NCBI GenBank assembly: GCA_945874535.1
Contig: CAMCGZ010000002.1
Location: 73,585-137,584 of the forward strand
Direction of reading: 5' to 3'
Length of the DNA stretch: 64,000 nucleotides
DNA from: Bdellovibrio sp. ZAP7
Lineage (GTDB): Bacteria > Bdellovibrionota > UBA1018 > CAIMNF01
Positions 13,516-57,460 of the stretch are shown one piece after another (position 1 is the first letter of the stretch; every line of letters starts with the position of its first letter). The translations under genes and the position numbers were made by a program. Below the pieces are notes generated by a model. It saw only the letters and a list, made by a program, of their open reading frames with translations. It was not told the origin of the DNA and searched no databases.

Positions 13516-14101
13516 GCGGATGGCGTTTCGGTTCTCCCTGTTTCTGGGTCTGGCAGGCCTCCTCGGGTCTTGCGGGTACACCCTGCGTGGGAACACCCGG
13601 GAGTTCTTCAATCAACAAGGGATCCGGAGCTTGTATGTAGCCCCTGTGAAGAATCTTTCTTACAAGCCCGGCGTCGAGATTGTGATCTACAATGCGCTCC
13701 GGAAGCGGATCGCCCAAGGCGGTTATGTGAGGATTGTCGATCAGCCCGGACAGGCTGATGCCGAAATCGAGGCGAAGGTGCTCGATGCGAGTTACGCACC
13801 GTCCGGGATCACCACAGCAGATCAGATCGCTCCCGTCCAGACGGGGCCATCCAATGTGCAGATCGCTTCTGCTTATGCGGTGAATTTGAAGGTAGCGTTC
13901 GAACTGTTCCAATCGGGCAGTCGGAAGCGGCTTTGGGGCGATACGGTGGCCAGGCAGAAAACCTTCACCGCTTCTACCTACTTGGGATCTCTCGGGTCGA
14001 CTTCCGCCCTGATCAACGAGGGAGATTTTGAGCGATCGGTCGGAGAACTCGCGGTGAGTCTCGTCACCGATGCCGAAGAATCGATGAACTCGGTGTTCTG
14101 A
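13514..14101 (+). CDS. LptE-like LPS-assembly lipoprotein
   Basis: Start at MRMAFRFSLFLGLAGLLGSCGY (lipoprotein signal, lipobox LGSC). Size and context fit LptE/RlpB-like proteins; low-confidence family call. Confidence 0.45.
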   Translation: MRMAFRFSLFLGLAGLLGSCGYTLRGNTREFFNQQGIRSLYVAPVKNLSYKPGVEIVIYNALRKRIAQGGYVRIVDQPGQADAEIEAKVLDASYAPSGITTADQIAPVQTGPSNVQIASAYAVNLKVAFELFQSGSRKRLWGDTVARQKTFTASTYLGSLGSTSALINEGDFERSVGELAVSLVTDAEESMNSVF

Positions 14102-14113
14102 GCGGCCTCTCGC

Positions 14114-15292
14114 TCAGTTGGACATCAGTTCGTCTGCGACTTCGCCCAGCATCTGGCGGGCGATGATCACGCGGAGGATTTCATTGGTGCCCGCTCCGAT
14201 TTCAATGAGCTTTGCATCACGCATCTGACGTTCCACCGGGAACTCACGGGTGTAGCCGTAGCCCCCGAGGATCTGGATCGCATCCAGGCCCACTTGTGTG
14301 GCCATTTGTGCGGACTGGAGCTTGGCCTTGGCGGCCATCATGGATGCCTCTTTTCCGGTCATGAGCCCCATATCCCAGGTCTTTGCCGCCTGATAAGTCA
14401 AAGCCCGACAGGCTTCGTACCATGCTGATGCTTCTGTGAGCCGTTCTTGAACCTGCTGGAAAGCACCGATGTGCTTGTTGAATTGTTTTCGCTCCTTGGC
14501 GTACTGGGTGGCGACTTCGATGCAGTTCCGCGCGATCCCGAGCGAGATGCCCGCGATGGTGATTCGCTCGATGTCGAGGTTACGCATCATCGCTTTCACG
14601 CTCGATCCTTCGGTACCGACACGGTTTCCCTCGGGAACCTTCACATCGGTGAACCAGAGTTCACCGGTCGGAGAAGCGCGCATTCCCATTTTTTTGAATT
14701 TTTTCCCGGTCGAGAAGCCGGGCATGTTTTTGTCGACGATGAAGGTCGACACATCTTTTTTGCCCGGACCGGTCTTGGCATAGATGTAGAAAATGTCGCC
14801 GTTCGGACCATTGGTGATCCAGGTCTTGGAGCCGTTGATTTTATAGGTACCGTCCGACTGCTTTTCGGCTTTGGTGAGCATGCCGAGCGCGTCGGATCCT
14901 GACCCCGGCTCGCTCATGCCCATACCGCCGATGTGTTCACCCGAGATGAGCTTCGGAAGGTACTTGAGCTTTTGTTCTTTGGAAGCGTTGGTGCCGATCT
15001 GGTTCACGCACAAGATGGAATGAGCGAGGTAAGAGAGGGTGGTCGAGGCGTCGACTGCGGCCATTTCTTCCATGGCAACAGTTGCGGCAACAGCACCCAT
15101 TCCGGCCCCGCCGTCTTCTTCAGCGACCGTGATGCCGAGCAGGCCCATTTCACCGAGTTTTTTGAACCCATCGAGATTGAAACTCTCGATCTCGTCGAGG
15201 TGCTCGATTTTGGGAGCGAGTTGCTCGCGCGCAAACGCACGGACGGATTCGGCCAACATTTTCTCTTCTTCAGTGAAAAACCAGATGGACAT
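14114..15292 (-). CDS. Acyl-CoA dehydrogenase (isovaleryl/short-chain type)
   Basis: 392 aa; ACAD N-, middle and C-terminal domain signatures (…GSDALGM…, …YGGYGY…REFPVER…). Confidence 0.85.
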   Translation of the reverse strand: MSIWFFTEEEKMLAESVRAFAREQLAPKIEHLDEIESFNLDGFKKLGEMGLLGITVAEEDGGAGMGAVAATVAMEEMAAVDASTTLSYLAHSILCVNQIGTNASKEQKLKYLPKLISGEHIGGMGMSEPGSGSDALGMLTKAEKQSDGTYKINGSKTWITNGPNGDIFYIYAKTGPGKKDVSTFIVDKNMPGFSTGKKFKKMGMRASPTGELWFTDVKVPEGNRVGTEGSSVKAMMRNLDIERITIAGISLGIARNCIEVATQYAKERKQFNKHIGAFQQVQERLTEASAWYEACRALTYQAAKTWDMGLMTGKEASMMAAKAKLQSAQMATQVGLDAIQILGGYGYTREFPVERQMRDAKLIEIGAGTNEILRVIIARQMLGEVADELMSN

Positions 15293-52924: not shown

Positions 52925-52987
52925 GGGGTCTTGCAAACGCTCCGGGGCATGGGCAGACTGGGGTTAATCGTTCCTCAGTTTCTCAGT

Positions 52988-53026
52988 GCCGGGGTGGCGA
53001 AATTGGTAGACGCACAGGACTTAAAA
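52988..53026 (+). tRNA. Disrupted host tRNA-Leu(UAA), 5' part (nt 1-39: acceptor 5' strand through anticodon loop CTTAAAA)
   Basis: GCCGGGGTGGCGAAATTGGTAGACGCACAGGACTTAAAA then diverges (CTTTTGGCG…) instead of TCCTG. Completes perfectly with 57411-57460. Confidence 0.8.
53000..53026. repeat. Left copy of 27-bp direct repeat (AAATTGGTAGACGCACAGGACTTAAAA) = att core, tRNA-Leu nt 13-39
   Basis: Perfect identity with 57384-57410; flanking bases differ (G vs A upstream, C vs T downstream). Confidence 0.85.
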
Positions 53027-53077
53027 CTTTTGGCGAGTTTTGGCTAAGTAATTGATATTTTTAAGGATAAATCTCTA

Positions 53078-53296
53078 ATGGTAGAGCAGAAAACCCTCAA
53101 AAAGGTAGAGCAATCTACCGATAAGATCGTAGATATGGCGAGCTTCCGCGAAGCAAAGATGCTTTACGAAATCTCCCAGCGTATAAACCCTCAACACACA
53201 CGAGAGGAAATCTACGAAGCGGTAGAGTTTTTTAAAGCAAATGAAAAGAGAACGAAAGATTCCAGAAAATGCGGAGGTGTTCTTCACACTCATTAA
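53078..53296 (+). CDS. Small ORF (72 aa) upstream of and overlapping the integrase start; doubtful
   Basis: Only ORF evidence; contains the two GGTAGAGCA repeats. Confidence 0.2.
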   Translation: MVEQKTLKKVEQSTDKIVDMASFREAKMLYEISQRINPQHTREEIYEAVEFFKANEKRTKDSRKCGGVLHTH

Positions 53297-54419
53297 GCCG
53301 ACTCCAAACAAGGAGGGGCCGAATGCTCGTCGCTCATTTGCTTTCATCATGGACATTCAATACGCTGATGGCCGCCGCGATCAACCTCGCTACCAGTTTC
53401 CCGAAGGCGACGACCGACTAAAGGTCATCAATAAATCCTACAAGATCGCCGACGATAAAAACGAAGCCTTCGAGAAGTGCCTCAAGCTCGCTTTAGACCT
53501 TCAAAAGAAACTTTACGTTGAGCACGGTCTTGAGAAAAAGACGGTCTTCAATCAGGAAAACTACGGAGTGCTGGATCAGTTTTTCGACTGGAAATACAGC
53601 GCGAAGAAAACGAAAGATAAAACTGCCGCGTACAACGATTTCCGCCGCGCAGTCGATGCCGTTGGTTCAATTCCGCTGCAAACTGCAACTAAGGCGGAAA
53701 TCCAGAAAGCGATCTCCGCCGCCGAAAATAAACAGCAACGGAGAATTGCGAGCCGCTTGAACATGATTTTTAAGTATCTCAAGCGAGATATTGTTTTGGA
53801 TAAGGACAAGAAAAAAAGAGTTTCTGTCCGCTACCTGAACGAAAAAGAATTCGCCTCGGTGATGAAGCTCATTAAGGACGAAAATCTGCGCTTAGTTTTC
53901 GAGATGGCCTTTCATTCCGGCTGTCGCATGGGCGAACTTTTCGCTTTAAATGAAGCTGATTTGCGTGCAGGGTTGCTGACCGTCGATAAGCAAATGCTCC
54001 GAACCGAAGAGGCTGTCCGTCGTCGGAAGCAAGAATACAAAGCCAAGGGCAAAACTTGGACGAATTGGATTCCGAAACCTACTGACCTGACCACCCCGAC
54101 AAAAAACGAACAAAGTCGGCGGGTCGTCGTTTTCGAAGAGTTCGCTCCCGCCTTTAGAAAATGGTGCGAGCTGGATTACGAAACAAAATTTAAGCTGCGG
54201 CATTCGCGGTTAGCGGAGATTTTAAAGACCGCTTGCGAGCAGAAGTTTCCGCAAAATGCTCAGAAACAATGCGTAGCTCATTGGACCGCGCCCCTCAACT
54301 TGGAAACCGCATCGAGGTTTGCCAGGAATTTTACACAGGCTACGAACTCCACAACGAGAACATCACCGTCCTCAAGTCGCTTATGCTGGCAAAAAAATAA
54401 TCGTTACGGGCGCCCGTAA
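53241..54419 (+). CDS. int: Tyrosine-type site-specific integrase (catalytic Tyr position possibly substituted: …ETASRFARNF…)
   Basis: Core motifs …AFHSGCRMGELFAL… (Arg I) and …KLRHSRLAEIL… (H-x-x-R). C-terminal region aligns by eye to the T-x-R-Y-A-H nucleophile motif but reads R-F-A-R. Start could alternatively be Met at 53349. Confidence 0.75.
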   Translation: MKRERKIPENAEVFFTLIKPTPNKEGPNARRSFAFIMDIQYADGRRDQPRYQFPEGDDRLKVINKSYKIADDKNEAFEKCLKLALDLQKKLYVEHGLEKKTVFNQENYGVLDQFFDWKYSAKKTKDKTAAYNDFRRAVDAVGSIPLQTATKAEIQKAISAAENKQQRRIASRLNMIFKYLKRDIVLDKDKKKRVSVRYLNEKEFASVMKLIKDENLRLVFEMAFHSGCRMGELFALNEADLRAGLLTVDKQMLRTEEAVRRRKQEYKAKGKTWTNWIPKPTDLTTPTKNEQSRRVVVFEEFAPAFRKWCELDYETKFKLRHSRLAEILKTACEQKFPQNAQKQCVAHWTAPLNLETASRFARNFTQATNSTTRTSPSSSRLCWQKNNRYGRP

Positions 54420-54490
54420 CGCAACCTTAATTCTTGAATTGTCAAGACTCTTCAGGTAAGGTTTTTTCAAGTTTGAAAAAATGAGTGTAT

Positions 54491-54814
54491 GCCCCCATGG
54501 TGAAATCGGTAGACACAAAGGACTTCAATTGGAGCCTCGTCTGGGAAACCTTATGAGTGGACACAGGGATAACGGTGAACGCTTACTGCTTCGCAGTAGT
54601 TGCCAACACCGTGGGAACATCGAGCAAGAAATTGGGAGATGAGCGCCGTAGAGACTAGATACCTGTGCACCTAAAATTCGCAAGAATCACGGTGAAGATA
54701 TAGTCCAGACCACAAACAAGACCGATTTATTTCGGAGTTGGCGGCGAAAGTCGAAGTGGTAAGAAAATCCTTGCCCGTAAGGGAGTGCCAGTTCGATTCT
54801 GGCTGGGGGCACCA
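54491..54814 (+). tRNA. tRNA-Leu(UAA) interrupted by a group I intron in the anticodon loop (exons 54491-54525 and 54764-54814; mature 86 nt incl. CCA)
   Basis: Exon 1 GCCCCCATGGTGAAATCGGTAGACACAAAGGACTT. Exon 2 AAAATCCTTG-CCCGTAAGGG-AGT-GCCAGTTCGATTCTGGC-TGGGGGC-A-CCA. Acceptor GCCCCCA/TGGGGGC, anticodon stem AAGGA/TCCTT, loop CTT|AAAA, long variable arm (type II), discriminator A. Confidence 0.8.
54526..54763 (+). ncRNA. Group I intron (tRNA-Leu(UAA) anticodon-loop type, ~238 nt, no ORF)
   Basis: Inserted after U34, ends in G. R-like element CGTAGAGACTAGATACC (54648-54664) and a perfect S consensus AAGATATAGTCC (54695-54706) form P7. GAAA tetraloop (GCGAAAG) near the 3' end. P1 region CAATTGGAGCC resembles cyanobacterial tRNA-Leu introns (UUGAGCC). 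Confidence 0.75.
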
Positions 54815-54815
54815 A

Positions 54816-55259
54816 CTATTTTTTCTGAATCTTTTTTTGATTCTTACTCGATTTTTTTGAGATCGAGTTTGGATATCGATCAAGTGAACAAGCTTTCCGC
54901 ACCTCAGATAAAAGACTGTACTGCTTAACATCAGTGTACGGATTGAGAAACGTCTCCACATTTTTTAGCTCAGCTTCCCCGTACAGCGAAAAAGTCTCGG
55001 CGGGAATGTCGATGGTTGCTTCAACGTACTGACCTTTTTCATTAATCGTATTCGCTGGCACAAAAGACCGAAGCTTGAATCGGGTTTCGGAATTAGTTTT
55101 TGGATTAACGATAAAATACCAGCTCGGTTCATTCATCGCTTTAACAAGAAGTCCCTCAAGAGTGCAGGTGCCTTTTGGAAATCTCGTAAGGGCAAAGCTG
55201 GCCGAAGGAAATGCCAAGACCAAAATTAAAGATAAAAGAATTTTATTTTTAGTAAGCAT
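54816..55259 (-). CDS. Secreted hypothetical protein (147 aa), overlapping and co-directional with the C13 peptidase gene
   Basis: Signal peptide MLTKNKILLSLILVLAFPSASFA; Lys-rich C-terminus. 11-nt overlap with the upstream gene. Confidence 0.5.
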   Translation of the reverse strand: MLTKNKILLSLILVLAFPSASFALTRFPKGTCTLEGLLVKAMNEPSWYFIVNPKTNSETRFKLRSFVPANTINEKGQYVEATIDIPAETFSLYGEAELKNVETFLNPYTDVKQYSLLSEVRKACSLDRYPNSISKKSSKNQKKIQKK

Positions 55260-56754
55260 ATTCCAAGCATCTCCTAATCGACGAATACTCCTTGATCATA
55301 TTGTCGTCGCCATATTTCAATAAATCCAATTCAAGATTCAAAATTTCGTATTTACGACGGTCTTTTTCAACTTCAGCTAACTTAATTTTTATTTGCTGTG
55401 CATCCAACTGGCCTTGCTGGCGTTTCGCGGCTTGCTCTTGGGGGGACAGGCGATCCCAGTTCTTTGCGGACTCAGCAATACTCGCCTTGAGGTCCTGAAT
55501 CCTCAAATCAAGGTCATCAAGAATAGCAGCGGAATCTTTGCCTTTAAGATTTTGGATAGTCTTTTCCAAACTCCCTTTAAGATATTGATGGCGACTTCCT
55601 GGAATACCATCAGTTGAAATTCCCATCTTCCCTTTCATTCGCTCAAAATCTTCGAGCAAACTTGCGATCTGTTTGAAAGCATCGTCGGGATGCGTGGAGC
55701 AACCGCTGACAGATTGAATGGGACTGATTTTTTTAGATCTTCCTTCGAGGATTTTGTTTTTATTCTTCGTAAGAAACCACTCAAGACTTGTCGTCGGAAT
55801 ATTCTGCGGATTATCTAAGTTCGTCGCATACAAGTGGGCATCCCAGTAGGTCGCTTTGCTGTCTTTGTCGGTATCCAATTTCTTTTTCAAAGCATAAGGA
55901 AAGTTCTGTCCATATAGGTCCAGATCAATGGATTCAGATAAACTCGTTTTGTTTCCTTGTTGATTGGCGAACACACAAACATTCGAGGAGGTCAGCTCGG
56001 TTAAACCACCGCCATAGCAAATATTCGTCACAACTCGAATCTGATTCGTTAACGGGAACTCACGAAGTAAATCACCCAATTGATTTACTGTCATGCTTTC
56101 GCCCCAAAGTGTCACAGTAGAACCACCTTCGGGATCTTGTTCACCGTGATCGGTTATGTAGAGGGTTAAATTGTCGCCCGGTTTTAATTTTCCGCGAAGC
56201 TCTCGGAACTTGTCTTTTATATTTTGCGAAGTCGCCCCGCCGTCGAGTTCGCGTTTTTCGCCGCTAAAAAGATAATCGAGGGTAATTGTGCTCGGAGCTG
56301 CAGGTTTGTCTGACTTATCCGATTTAACACCCGTTCCATCCCCTGATGGGATTGTTCCCATTCGAGTGGGTTCCATTTTGGTCTCACTCGGCATCACTTG
56401 GGCCGAGGGAGGAGAACCATATGAACCGCCGCCGCCATACCGGCCCGGCTGTCCCATCTCTGGAAATATCGGCTGAGTACTTGGCGAGTTAGTGTCTTCG
56501 ACCTTGCCGCTACCGTAAAGCACCATGATGTGATCCGATGCAATTCTGTTGCTACGAAAAGCATCATACATCGTGCGAACATTTTCGAAGTACCGTTGAT
56601 GATTGCTGGCTCGGTTTGCCCCACCGTTGATAATGACCGCATAATTTTTGCCGTCTCCGTCGCCTGCATTTGCGACCGAGATTGCGAGAATTAAAATTAA
56701 AGAAAAATAAAGTTTAACCATTCCAGTTATCTTATCGACACAGATTAAGTTCAA
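55249..56754 (-). CDS. Secreted legumain-like cysteine peptidase (peptidase family C13, clan CD caspase-like fold) with C-terminal coiled-coil region
   Basis: Signal peptide (…ILILAISVANA). N-terminal …KNYAVIINGGANRASNHQRYF…IMVLYGSG…; catalytic His in …LTLYITDHGEQ… and Cys in …RVVTNICYGGG… ~43 residues apart, as in legumain (…YFTDHG… / …IEACESGS…). Confidence 0.7.
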   Translation of the reverse strand: MNLICVDKITGMVKLYFSLILILAISVANAGDGDGKNYAVIINGGANRASNHQRYFENVRTMYDAFRSNRIASDHIMVLYGSGKVEDTNSPSTQPIFPEMGQPGRYGGGGSYGSPPSAQVMPSETKMEPTRMGTIPSGDGTGVKSDKSDKPAAPSTITLDYLFSGEKRELDGGATSQNIKDKFRELRGKLKPGDNLTLYITDHGEQDPEGGSTVTLWGESMTVNQLGDLLREFPLTNQIRVVTNICYGGGLTELTSSNVCVFANQQGNKTSLSESIDLDLYGQNFPYALKKKLDTDKDSKATYWDAHLYATNLDNPQNIPTTSLEWFLTKNKNKILEGRSKKISPIQSVSGCSTHPDDAFKQIASLLEDFERMKGKMGISTDGIPGSRHQYLKGSLEKTIQNLKGKDSAAILDDLDLRIQDLKASIAESAKNWDRLSPQEQAAKRQQGQLDAQQIKIKLAEVEKDRRKYEILNLELDLLKYGDDNMIKEYSSIRRCLEYAY

Positions 56755-56839
56755 TTTAAAGAAATCGTTAAAGATTTCGACTTTTTGATCGCTCTAAATC
56801 GATTTCTTCCATTCTGGTTGATCTTCGTCCCGACTTTCG

Positions 56840-57154
56840 TCAGCACTTTGACGCCCAGGCCTTTAATCCAATACCGTTCAGACGATCCAAAGCACCTATT
56901 TTATCCATCCCATAAGCTTCGAGCACCTTTATAAAATCAAGCGGATGAATTTTTCCGGCGGACTCGTATTCTCGTAAAAGTTCGGTATCAATTCCTATTT
57001 TTTCTGCGGCTTCGTCGATTGTAACGGGATTACCCCGAATCCAATCCGCATTCATTTCGTAGTGTTCAGCTAATTCCTTCGCCCAGGCGCGAAGCACAAC
57101 CTCTTCCGCATCCGTGGGCTTACGGTCGCCGTAAAGCCATCTCTTTTTTCCCAT
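56840..57154 (-). CDS. Xis/AlpA-like HTH DNA-binding protein (putative excisionase/regulator)
   Basis: …PVTIDEAAEKIGIDTELLREYESAGKIHP… fits the HTH_17/excisionase pattern (xTxxEAAExLGxxxxTLxRxxxxGxxP). Gene sits at the attR-proximal end. Confidence 0.5.
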   Translation of the reverse strand: MGKKRWLYGDRKPTDAEEVVLRAWAKELAEHYEMNADWIRGNPVTIDEAAEKIGIDTELLREYESAGKIHPLDFIKVLEAYGMDKIGALDRLNGIGLKAWASKC

Positions 57155-57383
57155 TCAATTTAAGTCTAACGGACTTTTCTAAATCGGGCAAAGACCTCTA
57201 ACCACTAAGGTTTTTCGTCCAGTTCCTTGCAGCATCGGTGCAGCACGAGCCGCACCTTCAAGCTTCATATTCTAACCCCATAACAGCCGCCGGACTCCGG
57301 CGGTCCCGCCAAAACCGTGAACCCAAAACCAAGCCTCCGCGACCGGCGTTTTTCGCCGCAGCGCCCCCTTTTTGCCCAAATCA

Positions 57384-57410
57384 AAATTGGTAGACGCACA
57401 GGACTTAAAA
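57384..57410. repeat. Right copy of 27-bp direct repeat (att core)
   Basis: Identical to 53000-53026. Confidence 0.85.
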
Positions 57411-57460
57411 TCCTGGGTTTGGCAACAGACGTACCGGTTCGATTCCGGTCCTCGGCACCA
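57384..57460 (+). tRNA. Disrupted host tRNA-Leu(UAA), 3' part (nt 13-86 + CCA); lacks the 5' acceptor strand and D-stem
   Basis: AAATTGGTAGACGCACAGGACTTAAAATCCTG-GGTTTGGCAACAGACGT-ACCGGTTCGATTCCGGT-CCTCGGC-A-CCA; upstream sequence (…TTTGCCCAAATC) cannot pair with CCTCGGC. Confidence 0.8.

Follow-up and report, generated by a model that had tools for sequence, protein, structure and literature searches.

A decayed integrative element in Bdellovibrio that splits a host tRNA-Leu(UAA) gene and carries an intron-containing copy of its own

The DNA considered here is a stretch of 64,000 nucleotides (the window) from Bdellovibrio sp. ZAP7 (assembly GCA_945874535.1, contig CAMCGZ010000002.1, positions 73,585 to 137,584 of the forward strand). 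Downstream of der in this window, a host tRNA-Leu(UAA) gene is split in two by an element of about 4.4 kb, and the element brings its own copy of the gene it disrupts, interrupted in turn by a 238-nt group I intron. Here, we describe the split gene, the replacement tRNA and its intron, and the damaged integrase of the element, and we then weigh several explanations of how the arrangement arose.

The split host gene and its empty site

At the left boundary (attL), the host gene begins with GCCGGGGTGGCG and the 27-mer AAATTGGTAGACGCACAGGACTTAAAA, and then passes directly into element DNA (CTTTTGG...). At the right boundary (attR), a second copy of AAATTGGTAGACGCACAGGACTTAAAA is followed by TCCTGGG...CCTCGGCACCA, the remainder of the gene. 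The 27-mer occurs twice in the window, at 53000 and 57384, and by our own estimate some 1e-7 perfect 27-mer pairs would be expected by chance in 64 kb. Between the repeats lie 4,357 bp with a GC content of 45.5%, against about 55% in the flanks, and the composition changes precisely where the repeats lie.

Neither junction holds a tRNA gene. ARAGORN finds none at attL or attR (its sole default call in the window is a tRNA-Cys at 971-1046), and Rfam reports at attR only a partial match to tRNA-Sec, whose 24.7 bits fall short of the cut-off of 47. When one repeat copy and the insert are removed in silico, ARAGORN finds a canonical 89-nt tRNA-Leu(taa) at the join. The corresponding empty site is present in a syntenic relative (NCBI GCA_027488515.1, loci L157/L158), where rnc, era and der are followed by an intact, intron-less tRNA-Leu(taa) gene that is identical to the rebuilt one at 89 of 89 positions. 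An earlier, sequence-only reading of this DNA had proposed the site-specific integration of an AT-richer segment into tRNA-Leu(UAA) between perfect 27-bp repeats, with a shared core that does not suffice to restore the tRNA, junctions that both lack one, and a host gene left in two dead pieces that together form a canonical tRNA. All of this holds, down to the fragment coordinates, and the comparison downstream of der bears it out.

The matching att halves, the attB of L157, the attP of a free relative (L013, see below) and the adjacent tyrosine recombinase gene all point to site-specific recombination as the event that split the gene. Two other origins for the arrangement were rejected. A target-site duplication left by a transposon is ruled out by the presence of the same core in free attP forms and at independent insertions, and the 4.36-kb insert cannot be an intron, given the duplicated 27-mer that flanks it and the recombinase encoded inside.

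A Logan contig of 4,417 bp (ERR3719164_63130) offers a hint about the population from which the window came. It starts at 52997 in the window, 3 nt short of the left repeat, and its length implies an end at 57413, 3 nt beyond the right one. If the Logan assembly used k=31, as we assume, then the 27-bp repeat is shorter than k and could not by itself break the assembly graph, so that breaks at k-1=30 nt (GCG plus the repeat, and the repeat plus TCC) are the pattern expected from reads of an intact attB. Provided that the assumed k is right, intact attB would thus appear to coexist with the occupied site in the sample.

The same site shows other irregularities in related genomes. In L157, about 2 kb separate the intact tRNA-Leu(UAA) gene from a DUF900 gene, and this segment (L157:8068-9699), which is absent from the window and contains two minus-strand open reading frames (ORFs) of 360 and 164 aa, may be another small insertion at the 3' side of the tRNA gene. 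Two Logan contigs from close relatives (L155 and L156, with DUF900 proteins 99% and 78% identical) begin inside the D-arm of tRNA-Leu, with GACGCAC... at L155:1 and GTAGACGCAC... at L156:1; assemblies of other samples break at the tRNA site too.

The replacement tRNA-Leu(UAA)

How, then, would a cell with this split gene decode UUA? The sequence-only reading implied that the tRNA was lost from the cell, which overlooked a complete tRNA-Leu(UAA) gene inside the element. The first clue to it was the peptide WCPQPESNWH in the list of minus-strand ORFs, with tRNA-Leu-like exons within 54400-54900; peptides of this kind are typical of the translated reverse complement of tRNA 3' ends. With introns allowed, ARAGORN calls a tRNA-Leu(taa) at 54491-54814, just after the integrase gene, with a 238-nt intron between U34 and A35 ('gactt-Intron-aaaat'). 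A default tRNA search misses the gene because the intron interrupts it. Splicing would give a type-II tRNA of 86 nt, with A73 and with CCA encoded in the gene, and ARAGORN again calls this spliced sequence tRNA-Leu(taa). A tRNA-Leu(taa) gene of their own is also found in five relatives (L001, L004, L013, L015 and L017).

The codon TTA is used 6 times in 2113 codons (2.8 per 1000) in the host genes flanking the element, and at 19.7 per 1000 codons in the element ORFs. We take the TTA codons of the host flanks as a sign that the host needs a tRNA-Leu(UAA), a need that the element tRNA, if expressed and charged, would serve.

The group I intron

The interrupting sequence can be folded into the standard elements of a group I intron: P1, with 3 bp and a U.G pair at the splice site, P2, the P3/P7 pseudoknot, P4-P6, P8, P9 and a terminal G. 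P1 adjoins the retained anticodon stem. In the Anabaena pre-tRNA-Leu intron, too, a short P1 lies beside a retained anticodon stem. The Rfam model Intron_gpI (RF00028), run in E-value mode, matches 54516-54720 with 25.9 bits (E=0.0017).

The fold was examined in an alignment of 33 distinct sequences, 6 from the element family and its hosts and 27 viral, using a hand-drawn structure that comprised the anticodon stem, P1, P2, the P3/P7 pseudoknot, P4, P5, P6, P8, P9.0 and P9b. Standard pairs fill 93.6% of the cells, a share that falls to 32-40% once the 3' partners are displaced by 1-3 columns; both sides change in 33 of the 54 pairs, and the covariation score was reached by none of 500 shuffles. 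Compensatory changes occur in P2, P3, inner P8 and P9b, and P7 shows a switch from A-U to U-A. P6 is poorly aligned and only 52% paired, and so adds no support to the fold. At the 5' splice site, 32 of the 33 sequences have the U.G pair, and the terminal G of the intron end (...GGTAAG|AAAATCC) is nearly invariant. The intron is predicted to splice itself out.

Introns with this core are common in viral DNA. The motif GGTGAAGRYAWAGTCCAGACCMCRAAC, taken from the P7/J8-7 region and run against IMG/VR contigs, occurs in at least 120 contigs among the matches listed (loci L021-L140, for example L022:4934-5231 and L044:163-445). In 100 of the 120 fetched loci an intron-containing tRNA called by ARAGORN spans the motif, and 40 of these calls are tRNA-Leu(taa). 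The other calls include Tyr, Arg, Lys, Thr and SeC, some of them probably wrong, and several of the 'taa' tRNAs have no long variable arm. Default ARAGORN misses all of these motif-bearing genes. Intron length varies within the element family as well, from 225 nt in L001 and 238 in the window to 272 in the L004 element, whose intron has a 38-nt AT-rich hairpin inserted in the P1 loop (L004:11222-11260) relative to the other two.

The integrase lesion and the site of strand exchange

The sequence-only reading treated the integrase as a working gene, placed the crossover in a 'D-loop/anticodon region' and described an Xis-like gene at the right end; each of these points has had to be revised. 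The integrase is a pseudogene. Nine homologues of the ORF are available, and all sequences other than that of the window read ...CVAH-DLRHSFAIRLLQFVNLTYVS-LQLGNRIEVCQEFYTGYELH..., while the window sequence changes frame after CVAH. DNA alignment reveals a net 49-bp deletion around 54282-54295 (gaps of 18, 22 and 9 bp) that takes out box II (DLRHSFAIRLLQFVNLTYVS, HxxR), where the catalytic Arg and His reside, and throws the LGNRIEVCQEFYTGY segment, which bears the catalytic Tyr, out of frame. Intact homologues are 397-403 aa long and match Pfam PF00589. The lesion is present as identical sequence in the ENA and Logan assemblies, and is therefore not the quirk of one assembler. With box II lost and the catalytic Tyr out of frame, the element cannot excise by itself, and the swap of tRNA genes looks locked in unless another integrase acts on it.

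The crossover can be placed more narrowly by comparing three independent insertions, whose blocks of identity between element and target are 27, 26 and 12 bp long. They intersect on the 12-bp TGGTAGACGCAC, which would place strand exchange within the D-loop and D-stem and on the 5' side of the intron position.

Between attL and the integrase gene lies a conserved 72-aa ORF, orf72, which always overlaps the integrase start (53241 in the window), int being in the +1 frame. It contains three direct copies of GGTAGAS (at 53080, 53104 and 53221) and one inverted copy (TCTACC, 53114). These match the GGTAGAC of the core, and the same motifs are present in L001, L004 and L013; they are probably arm-type integrase sites. 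The frame itself could encode a separate small protein, perhaps a recombination directionality factor (RDF), or could be coding sequence in which arm sites happen to sit. A programmed frameshift fusion of orf72 to int was also considered, and no convincing slippery site was seen.

Relatives of the element

Two further insertions have the same architecture, and neither has a tRNA at its junctions. On a 226-kb ENA contig (L152), a different tRNA-Leu(UAA) gene is split by a 15.5-kb element whose flanking repeat measures 26 bp; the order is host tRNA 5' half, orf72, int, intron-bearing tRNA-Leu(taa) ... conserved right arm (P arm), host tRNA 3' part. In a Pseudobdellovibrionaceae metagenome-assembled genome (MAG; L004/L154), the left end is arranged as in the window (attL, int, intron-bearing tRNA), and the right end consists of the P arm, TGGTAGACGCAC-GGGACTT, a group I intron of 237 nt and AAAATCCTGGG...CTCGAGCACCA, in that order. 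When the attL and attR of this insertion are joined, they yield a host tRNA-Leu(taa) that contains an intron and has matching acceptor strands (GCTCGAG/CTCGAGC). The resident host gene (L154:17285-17597 with L004:9640-9678) thus carries its own group I intron at 34/35, and by blastn a segment from the window element's intron and 3' exon (54601-54815) is about 72% identical to this resident gene. The identity shared at the L004/L154 insertion is limited to TGGTAGACGCAC, 5' of the intron site. This insertion into an intron-containing host tRNA gene rules out another idea that we had considered, namely that the intron, by splitting the att core, makes the element's tRNA gene immune to the element's own integrase.

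Free forms were also found. One is a phage-like contig of 46 kb (L013), in which element DNA flanks the 25-bp core of attP on either side, and int is followed immediately by an intron-less tRNA-Leu(taa); it also encodes VapE, DNA polymerase A and RuvC. Two others (L016 and L017) have an Xis-like helix-turn-helix (HTH) gene, an attP-like site, int, a 150-aa ORF and an intron-bearing tRNA-Leu(taa). Among more distant integrases (about 30% identity), L014 and L020 have a classical attP that carries tRNA-Leu from the D-loop to the 3' end and have no tRNA gene next to int, and the locus L007 sits beside an intact tRNA-Leu(UAA). A genome scan yielded 7 loci, 4 of them informative; the integrase profile run on Joint Genome Institute (JGI) metagenomes returned only a contig that was already known and weak partial matches.

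The distribution of attP types among these relatives suggests one evolutionary path, in which an ancestor with a regenerating attP acquired a full tRNA gene and the 3' part of attP was then lost. The same path has been discussed as one of several scenarios (PMC10865867).

The larger relatives have features of their own. Directly 3' of the split tRNA gene of L152 lies a second, unrelated tyrosine integrase of 291 aa (L152:18746-19621, minus strand; Phage_int_SAM_3 plus Phage_integrase), so this tRNA-Leu(UAA) gene may harbour two elements in tandem, the second a classical 3'-end element. The L152 element also carries defence-type cargo (L152:4983-8009 and 13846-15156): a ThsB-like TIR protein, a caspase-like Peptidase_C14, an HNH nuclease, and C5 and N6/N4 methylases. 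A 137-aa winged HTH protein of the larger elements has 62 other homologues (E<=1e-5), of which the few that are named come from Bdellovibrionales/Pseudobdellovibrio MAGs.

Other parts of the window element

Only two blocks of the window element are conserved with its relatives, a left module (52979-54822, with attL, orf72, int and the tRNA gene) and the right arm (57038-57410). A GC-rich hairpin that separates int from the tRNA gene scores as a terminator, with its T-run, on the minus strand; a scan for promoters and terminators did no better than shuffled sequence. The two cargo ORFs between the conserved blocks match nothing in PADLOC or NCBIfam, and the similarity of the longer one to Peptidase_C13 (E=0.0025, 17.8 bits) is below the cut-off of 22.8.

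The right-end ORF formerly described as Xis-like is a chimeric remnant. Over the first 38 aa it equals the N-terminus of a protein of 709/726 aa in the larger relatives; the rest is unrelated to that protein, with only weak, sub-threshold MerR/HTH matches. No tblastn match to it at E<1e-5 was found in L001-L020, the HTH genes of the larger relatives included, and we see no credible RDF in the window element. With only two conserved blocks, a chimeric ORF and a broken integrase, the element is best viewed as a reduced, immobilised derivative of one of 15-17 kb. The coordinates of all features are collected in Table 1.

Table 1. Features of the split tRNA-Leu(UAA) locus (window coordinates)
Feature	Position	Strand	Basis
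attL: host tRNA-Leu(UAA) 5' fragment, nt 1-39	52988..53026	+	Equals nt 1-39 of the intact L157 tRNA
Common core, left copy of the 27-bp direct repeat	53000..53026	+	Perfect repeat
Probable crossover segment TGGTAGACGCAC, within the left repeat copy	53004-53015		Intersection of three identity blocks
orf72, conserved 72-aa ORF overlapping the int start	53078..53296	+	tblastn, 83-88% identity in L001-L006
Tyrosine integrase pseudogene, 392-aa ORF	53241..54419	+	Homologue and DNA alignments
GC-rich hairpin CGTTACGGGCGCCCGTAACG between int and the element tRNA gene	54402..54421	.	Invariant block in relatives
5' exon of element tRNA-Leu(UAA), nt 1-34, last base U34	54491..54525	+	ARAGORN, introns allowed
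Group I intron, 238 nt, between U34 and A35	54526..54763	+	Rfam, ARAGORN, alignment and covariation
3' exon of element tRNA-Leu(UAA), CCA encoded	54764..54814	+	ARAGORN, introns allowed
Cargo ORF, 147 aa	54816..55259	-	Signal/lipoprotein-like N-terminus by eye; no family match
Cargo ORF, 501 aa, hydrophobic N-terminus	55249..56754	-	Weak legumain-type Peptidase_C13 similarity
Chimeric ORF, 104 aa	56840..57154	-	First 38 aa plus unrelated rest
Conserved right arm (P arm), end ...GCGCCCCCTTTTTGCCCAAATCA adjoining the core	57038..57383	+	blastn, 94% to L154 and 83% to L152
attR: right 27-bp repeat copy (57384-57410) and host tRNA-Leu(UAA) nt 13-89 including CCA	57384..57460	+	

Weighing the explanations

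The explanation that we hold with good confidence is that the window contains a decayed 4.4-kb integrative element, belonging to a family found in Bdellovibrionales/Pseudobdellovibrionaceae MAGs, which disrupts and replaces its target in a way that matches tRNA-dependent lysogeny. A tyrosine integrase of the family would recombine attP with the host tRNA-Leu(UAA) gene, with the crossover in the D-loop/D-stem segment TGGTAGACGCAC. Because attP would carry only about nt 13-39 of the tRNA gene, without the 3' half, the host gene would end up, after integration, as two non-functional pieces, one of nt 1-39 (attL) and one of nt 13-89 (attR). UUA codons would still be read by means of the complete tRNA gene directly downstream of int; in the subfamily to which the window belongs, the intron at 34/35 must presumably splice itself out to give the 86-nt tRNA. 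Decay of the integrase, with its 49-bp net loss, and loss of most ancestral cargo would then have put an end to self-driven excision. The net effect would be to swap an intron-less host tRNA gene for a foreign, intron-containing one.

Several points count against this explanation. At 25.9 bits the window intron does not reach the gathering score of 50 of RF00028, and at the gathering threshold Rfam reports no group I intron in five relatives (L001, L004, L013, L015 and L017). With the curated model below threshold, the intron call rests on our own structure and covariation analysis. Self-splicing of the intron, and expression and charging of the tRNA, are predictions from sequence, and the position of strand exchange is likewise read from identity blocks. 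The host probably has no second tRNA-Leu(UAA) gene; our view takes in 64 kb of its genome, and a second copy could lie elsewhere. A related element could supply integrase in trans, and the lock on the swap would then be less than complete. Finally, the 4.4-kb window element lacks genes for virions, replication and a repressor, and so is not a temperate phage like the published cases. The window copy works like tRNA-dependent lysogeny or is a relic of it, and is not itself a lysogenic phage.

Of the rival explanations, the one that deserves most attention, although we regard it as unlikely, is that the element tRNA is codon-usage cargo for TTA-rich genes, and that the disruption is incidental and neutral in a host with another tRNA-Leu(UAA) gene. 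The difference in TTA use between element ORFs and host flanks (19.7 versus 2.8 per 1000) speaks for this explanation, and the intron-bearing tRNA genes in 100 of the 120 motif-bearing IMG/VR loci occur whether or not an integrase is nearby. However, the anticodon of the element tRNA always matches the disrupted target, and tight linkage between the tRNA gene and int holds for all members with a non-regenerating attP, while L014 and L020, with their regenerating attP, have no tRNA gene next to int. Moreover, the logic of disrupting and replacing has been demonstrated experimentally in a published system (PMC10865867).

If the element tRNA is set aside, the junctions invite a different explanation, that integration is an uncompensated knock-out of tRNA-Leu(UAA), reversible and perhaps a switch of the skin/comK type in which excision restores the gene. 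Neither junction has a functional tRNA, and precise excision would indeed restore one. Nevertheless, this explanation has very little to recommend it once the element is considered as a whole: a complete tRNA-Leu(UAA) gene lies inside, conserved next to int in every close relative; the neighbouring host genes use TTA codons; and the integrase is a pseudogene, so that self-driven excision is impossible. The locus therefore lacks what a regulated-integrity or active-lysogeny switch would have, with tRNA function coming from the element copy, a dead integrase and no credible RDF. Still less probable, to the point where we give it hardly any weight, is a chimeric join or collapsed repeat at the tRNA gene. 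The contig is metagenome-assembled, and tRNA genes are often misassembly points, but the same junction is found in a 153-kb ENA megahit contig and in a Logan contig (0 mismatches), the composition shift falls exactly at the repeats, and two elements in other hosts have matching attL/attR halves, acceptor-stem strands included.

Comparison with known systems

The disrupt-and-replace arrangement has a close precedent, and its design, which the sequence-only reading had set apart from most tRNA-targeting elements because no intact tRNA is regenerated, is already in the literature. In tRNA-dependent lysogeny, described in actinobacteriophages (Fionnbharth/K4, Cluster L; Guerrero-Bustamante & Hatfull, mBio 2024, PMC10865867), the attB used by a tyrosine integrase lies within a tRNA gene, the shortness of the common core leaves that tRNA unrestored, and viable lysogens need a phage tRNA of the same isotype. 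The family described here likewise has an attB inside the host tRNA gene (L157), an attP (L013) and a tyrosine integrase, a core too short to make a tRNA at either junction, and an element tRNA with the same anticodon; in both systems some relatives have a long, regenerating attP (Boilgate there, L014 and L020 here). The differences lie in the hosts, which are Actinobacteria there and apparently Bdellovibrionota here; in the core, about 10 bp at the anticodon loop there and 12-27 bp from D-arm to anticodon here; in the group I intron within the complementing tRNA gene; and in the window copy itself, a 4.4-kb non-phage remnant with a dead integrase. The three sequence-level features of tRNA-dependent lysogeny are thus all present, and what is missing, in the present decayed form, is the temperate phage. 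The novelty of the present case lies in the host lineage, in the intron that interrupts the complementing tRNA gene, and in the fixed state of the element.

Classical tRNA-targeting islands and prophages share with the window element an integrase gene beside att, a tRNA target and flanking direct repeats. The classical attP reportedly carries the 3' part of the tRNA gene, according to the Williams 2002 sublocation scheme. The identity block of classical islands lies 3' of the anticodon loop, whereas here it lies 5' of it. Such islands also keep an intact tRNA at one junction, as L014, L020 and L007 do and the window element does not.

The intron is best compared with the cyanobacterial and plastid tRNA-Leu(UAA) intron and with the wider group of bacterial tRNA group I introns, for which 34/35 is the standard site in tRNA-Leu (PMC13011429). 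It shares with them that site in tRNA-Leu(UAA), a length of about 240 nt, the lack of a homing-endonuclease ORF, a 3-bp P1 with U.G that adjoins the retained anticodon stem, and the R and S core sequences GUAGAGACUAGA and AAGAUAUAGUCC. It differs in being below threshold in Rfam and in residing in an element-borne tRNA gene, while theirs reside in chromosomal genes. Limited horizontal transfer has been inferred for the bacterial introns, and integrative elements are not discussed in that study (PMC13011429).

A more distant parallel is the Caldiarchaeum tRNA-Thr locus (Sugahara et al. 2012, PMC3293823), which also combines a 5' tRNA fragment, an insert with a recombinase and a new intron-containing copy for the same isoacceptor. 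That locus is archaeal, its bulge-helix-bulge (BHB) introns are spliced by protein, its recombinase is of another kind, and its new tRNA gene stands at the junction, in contrast to the position inside the element here.

Implications

Outside Actinobacteria, tRNA-dependent lysogeny has been hinted at only by the Lactobacillus prophage Lj965, and the authors called its prevalence unknown and urged a wider survey (PMC10865867). If our explanation is correct, the strategy reaches beyond Actinobacteria to an apparent Bdellovibrionota lineage and its phages, a question left open in that work. Genes of this kind are missed by default tRNA finders and at Rfam thresholds, so that a genome like this one would score as having no tRNA-Leu(UAA).

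The intron would add a further layer of dependence on the element. A ribozyme must first act to make the complementing tRNA, and translation of UUA codons in the host would hang on the self-splicing of a foreign intron. The dead integrase would mark the end point of this process, in which a host tRNA gene is replaced by a xenologous, intron-containing copy, and it provides a concrete route for such a transfer.

Could elements of this kind be a vehicle that moves group I introns without homing endonucleases between bacterial tRNA genes, with integrase decay fixing the foreign copy? We put this forward as a tentative idea, possible and yet still rather doubtful. The same intron core in at least 120 IMG/VR contigs, mostly within intron-containing tRNA calls in the loci that were fetched, fits the idea, and so does a Pseudobdellovibrionaceae host with a related intron in its resident tRNA-Leu(UAA) gene. 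If true, it would help to explain the patchy spread of tRNA group I introns across phyla.

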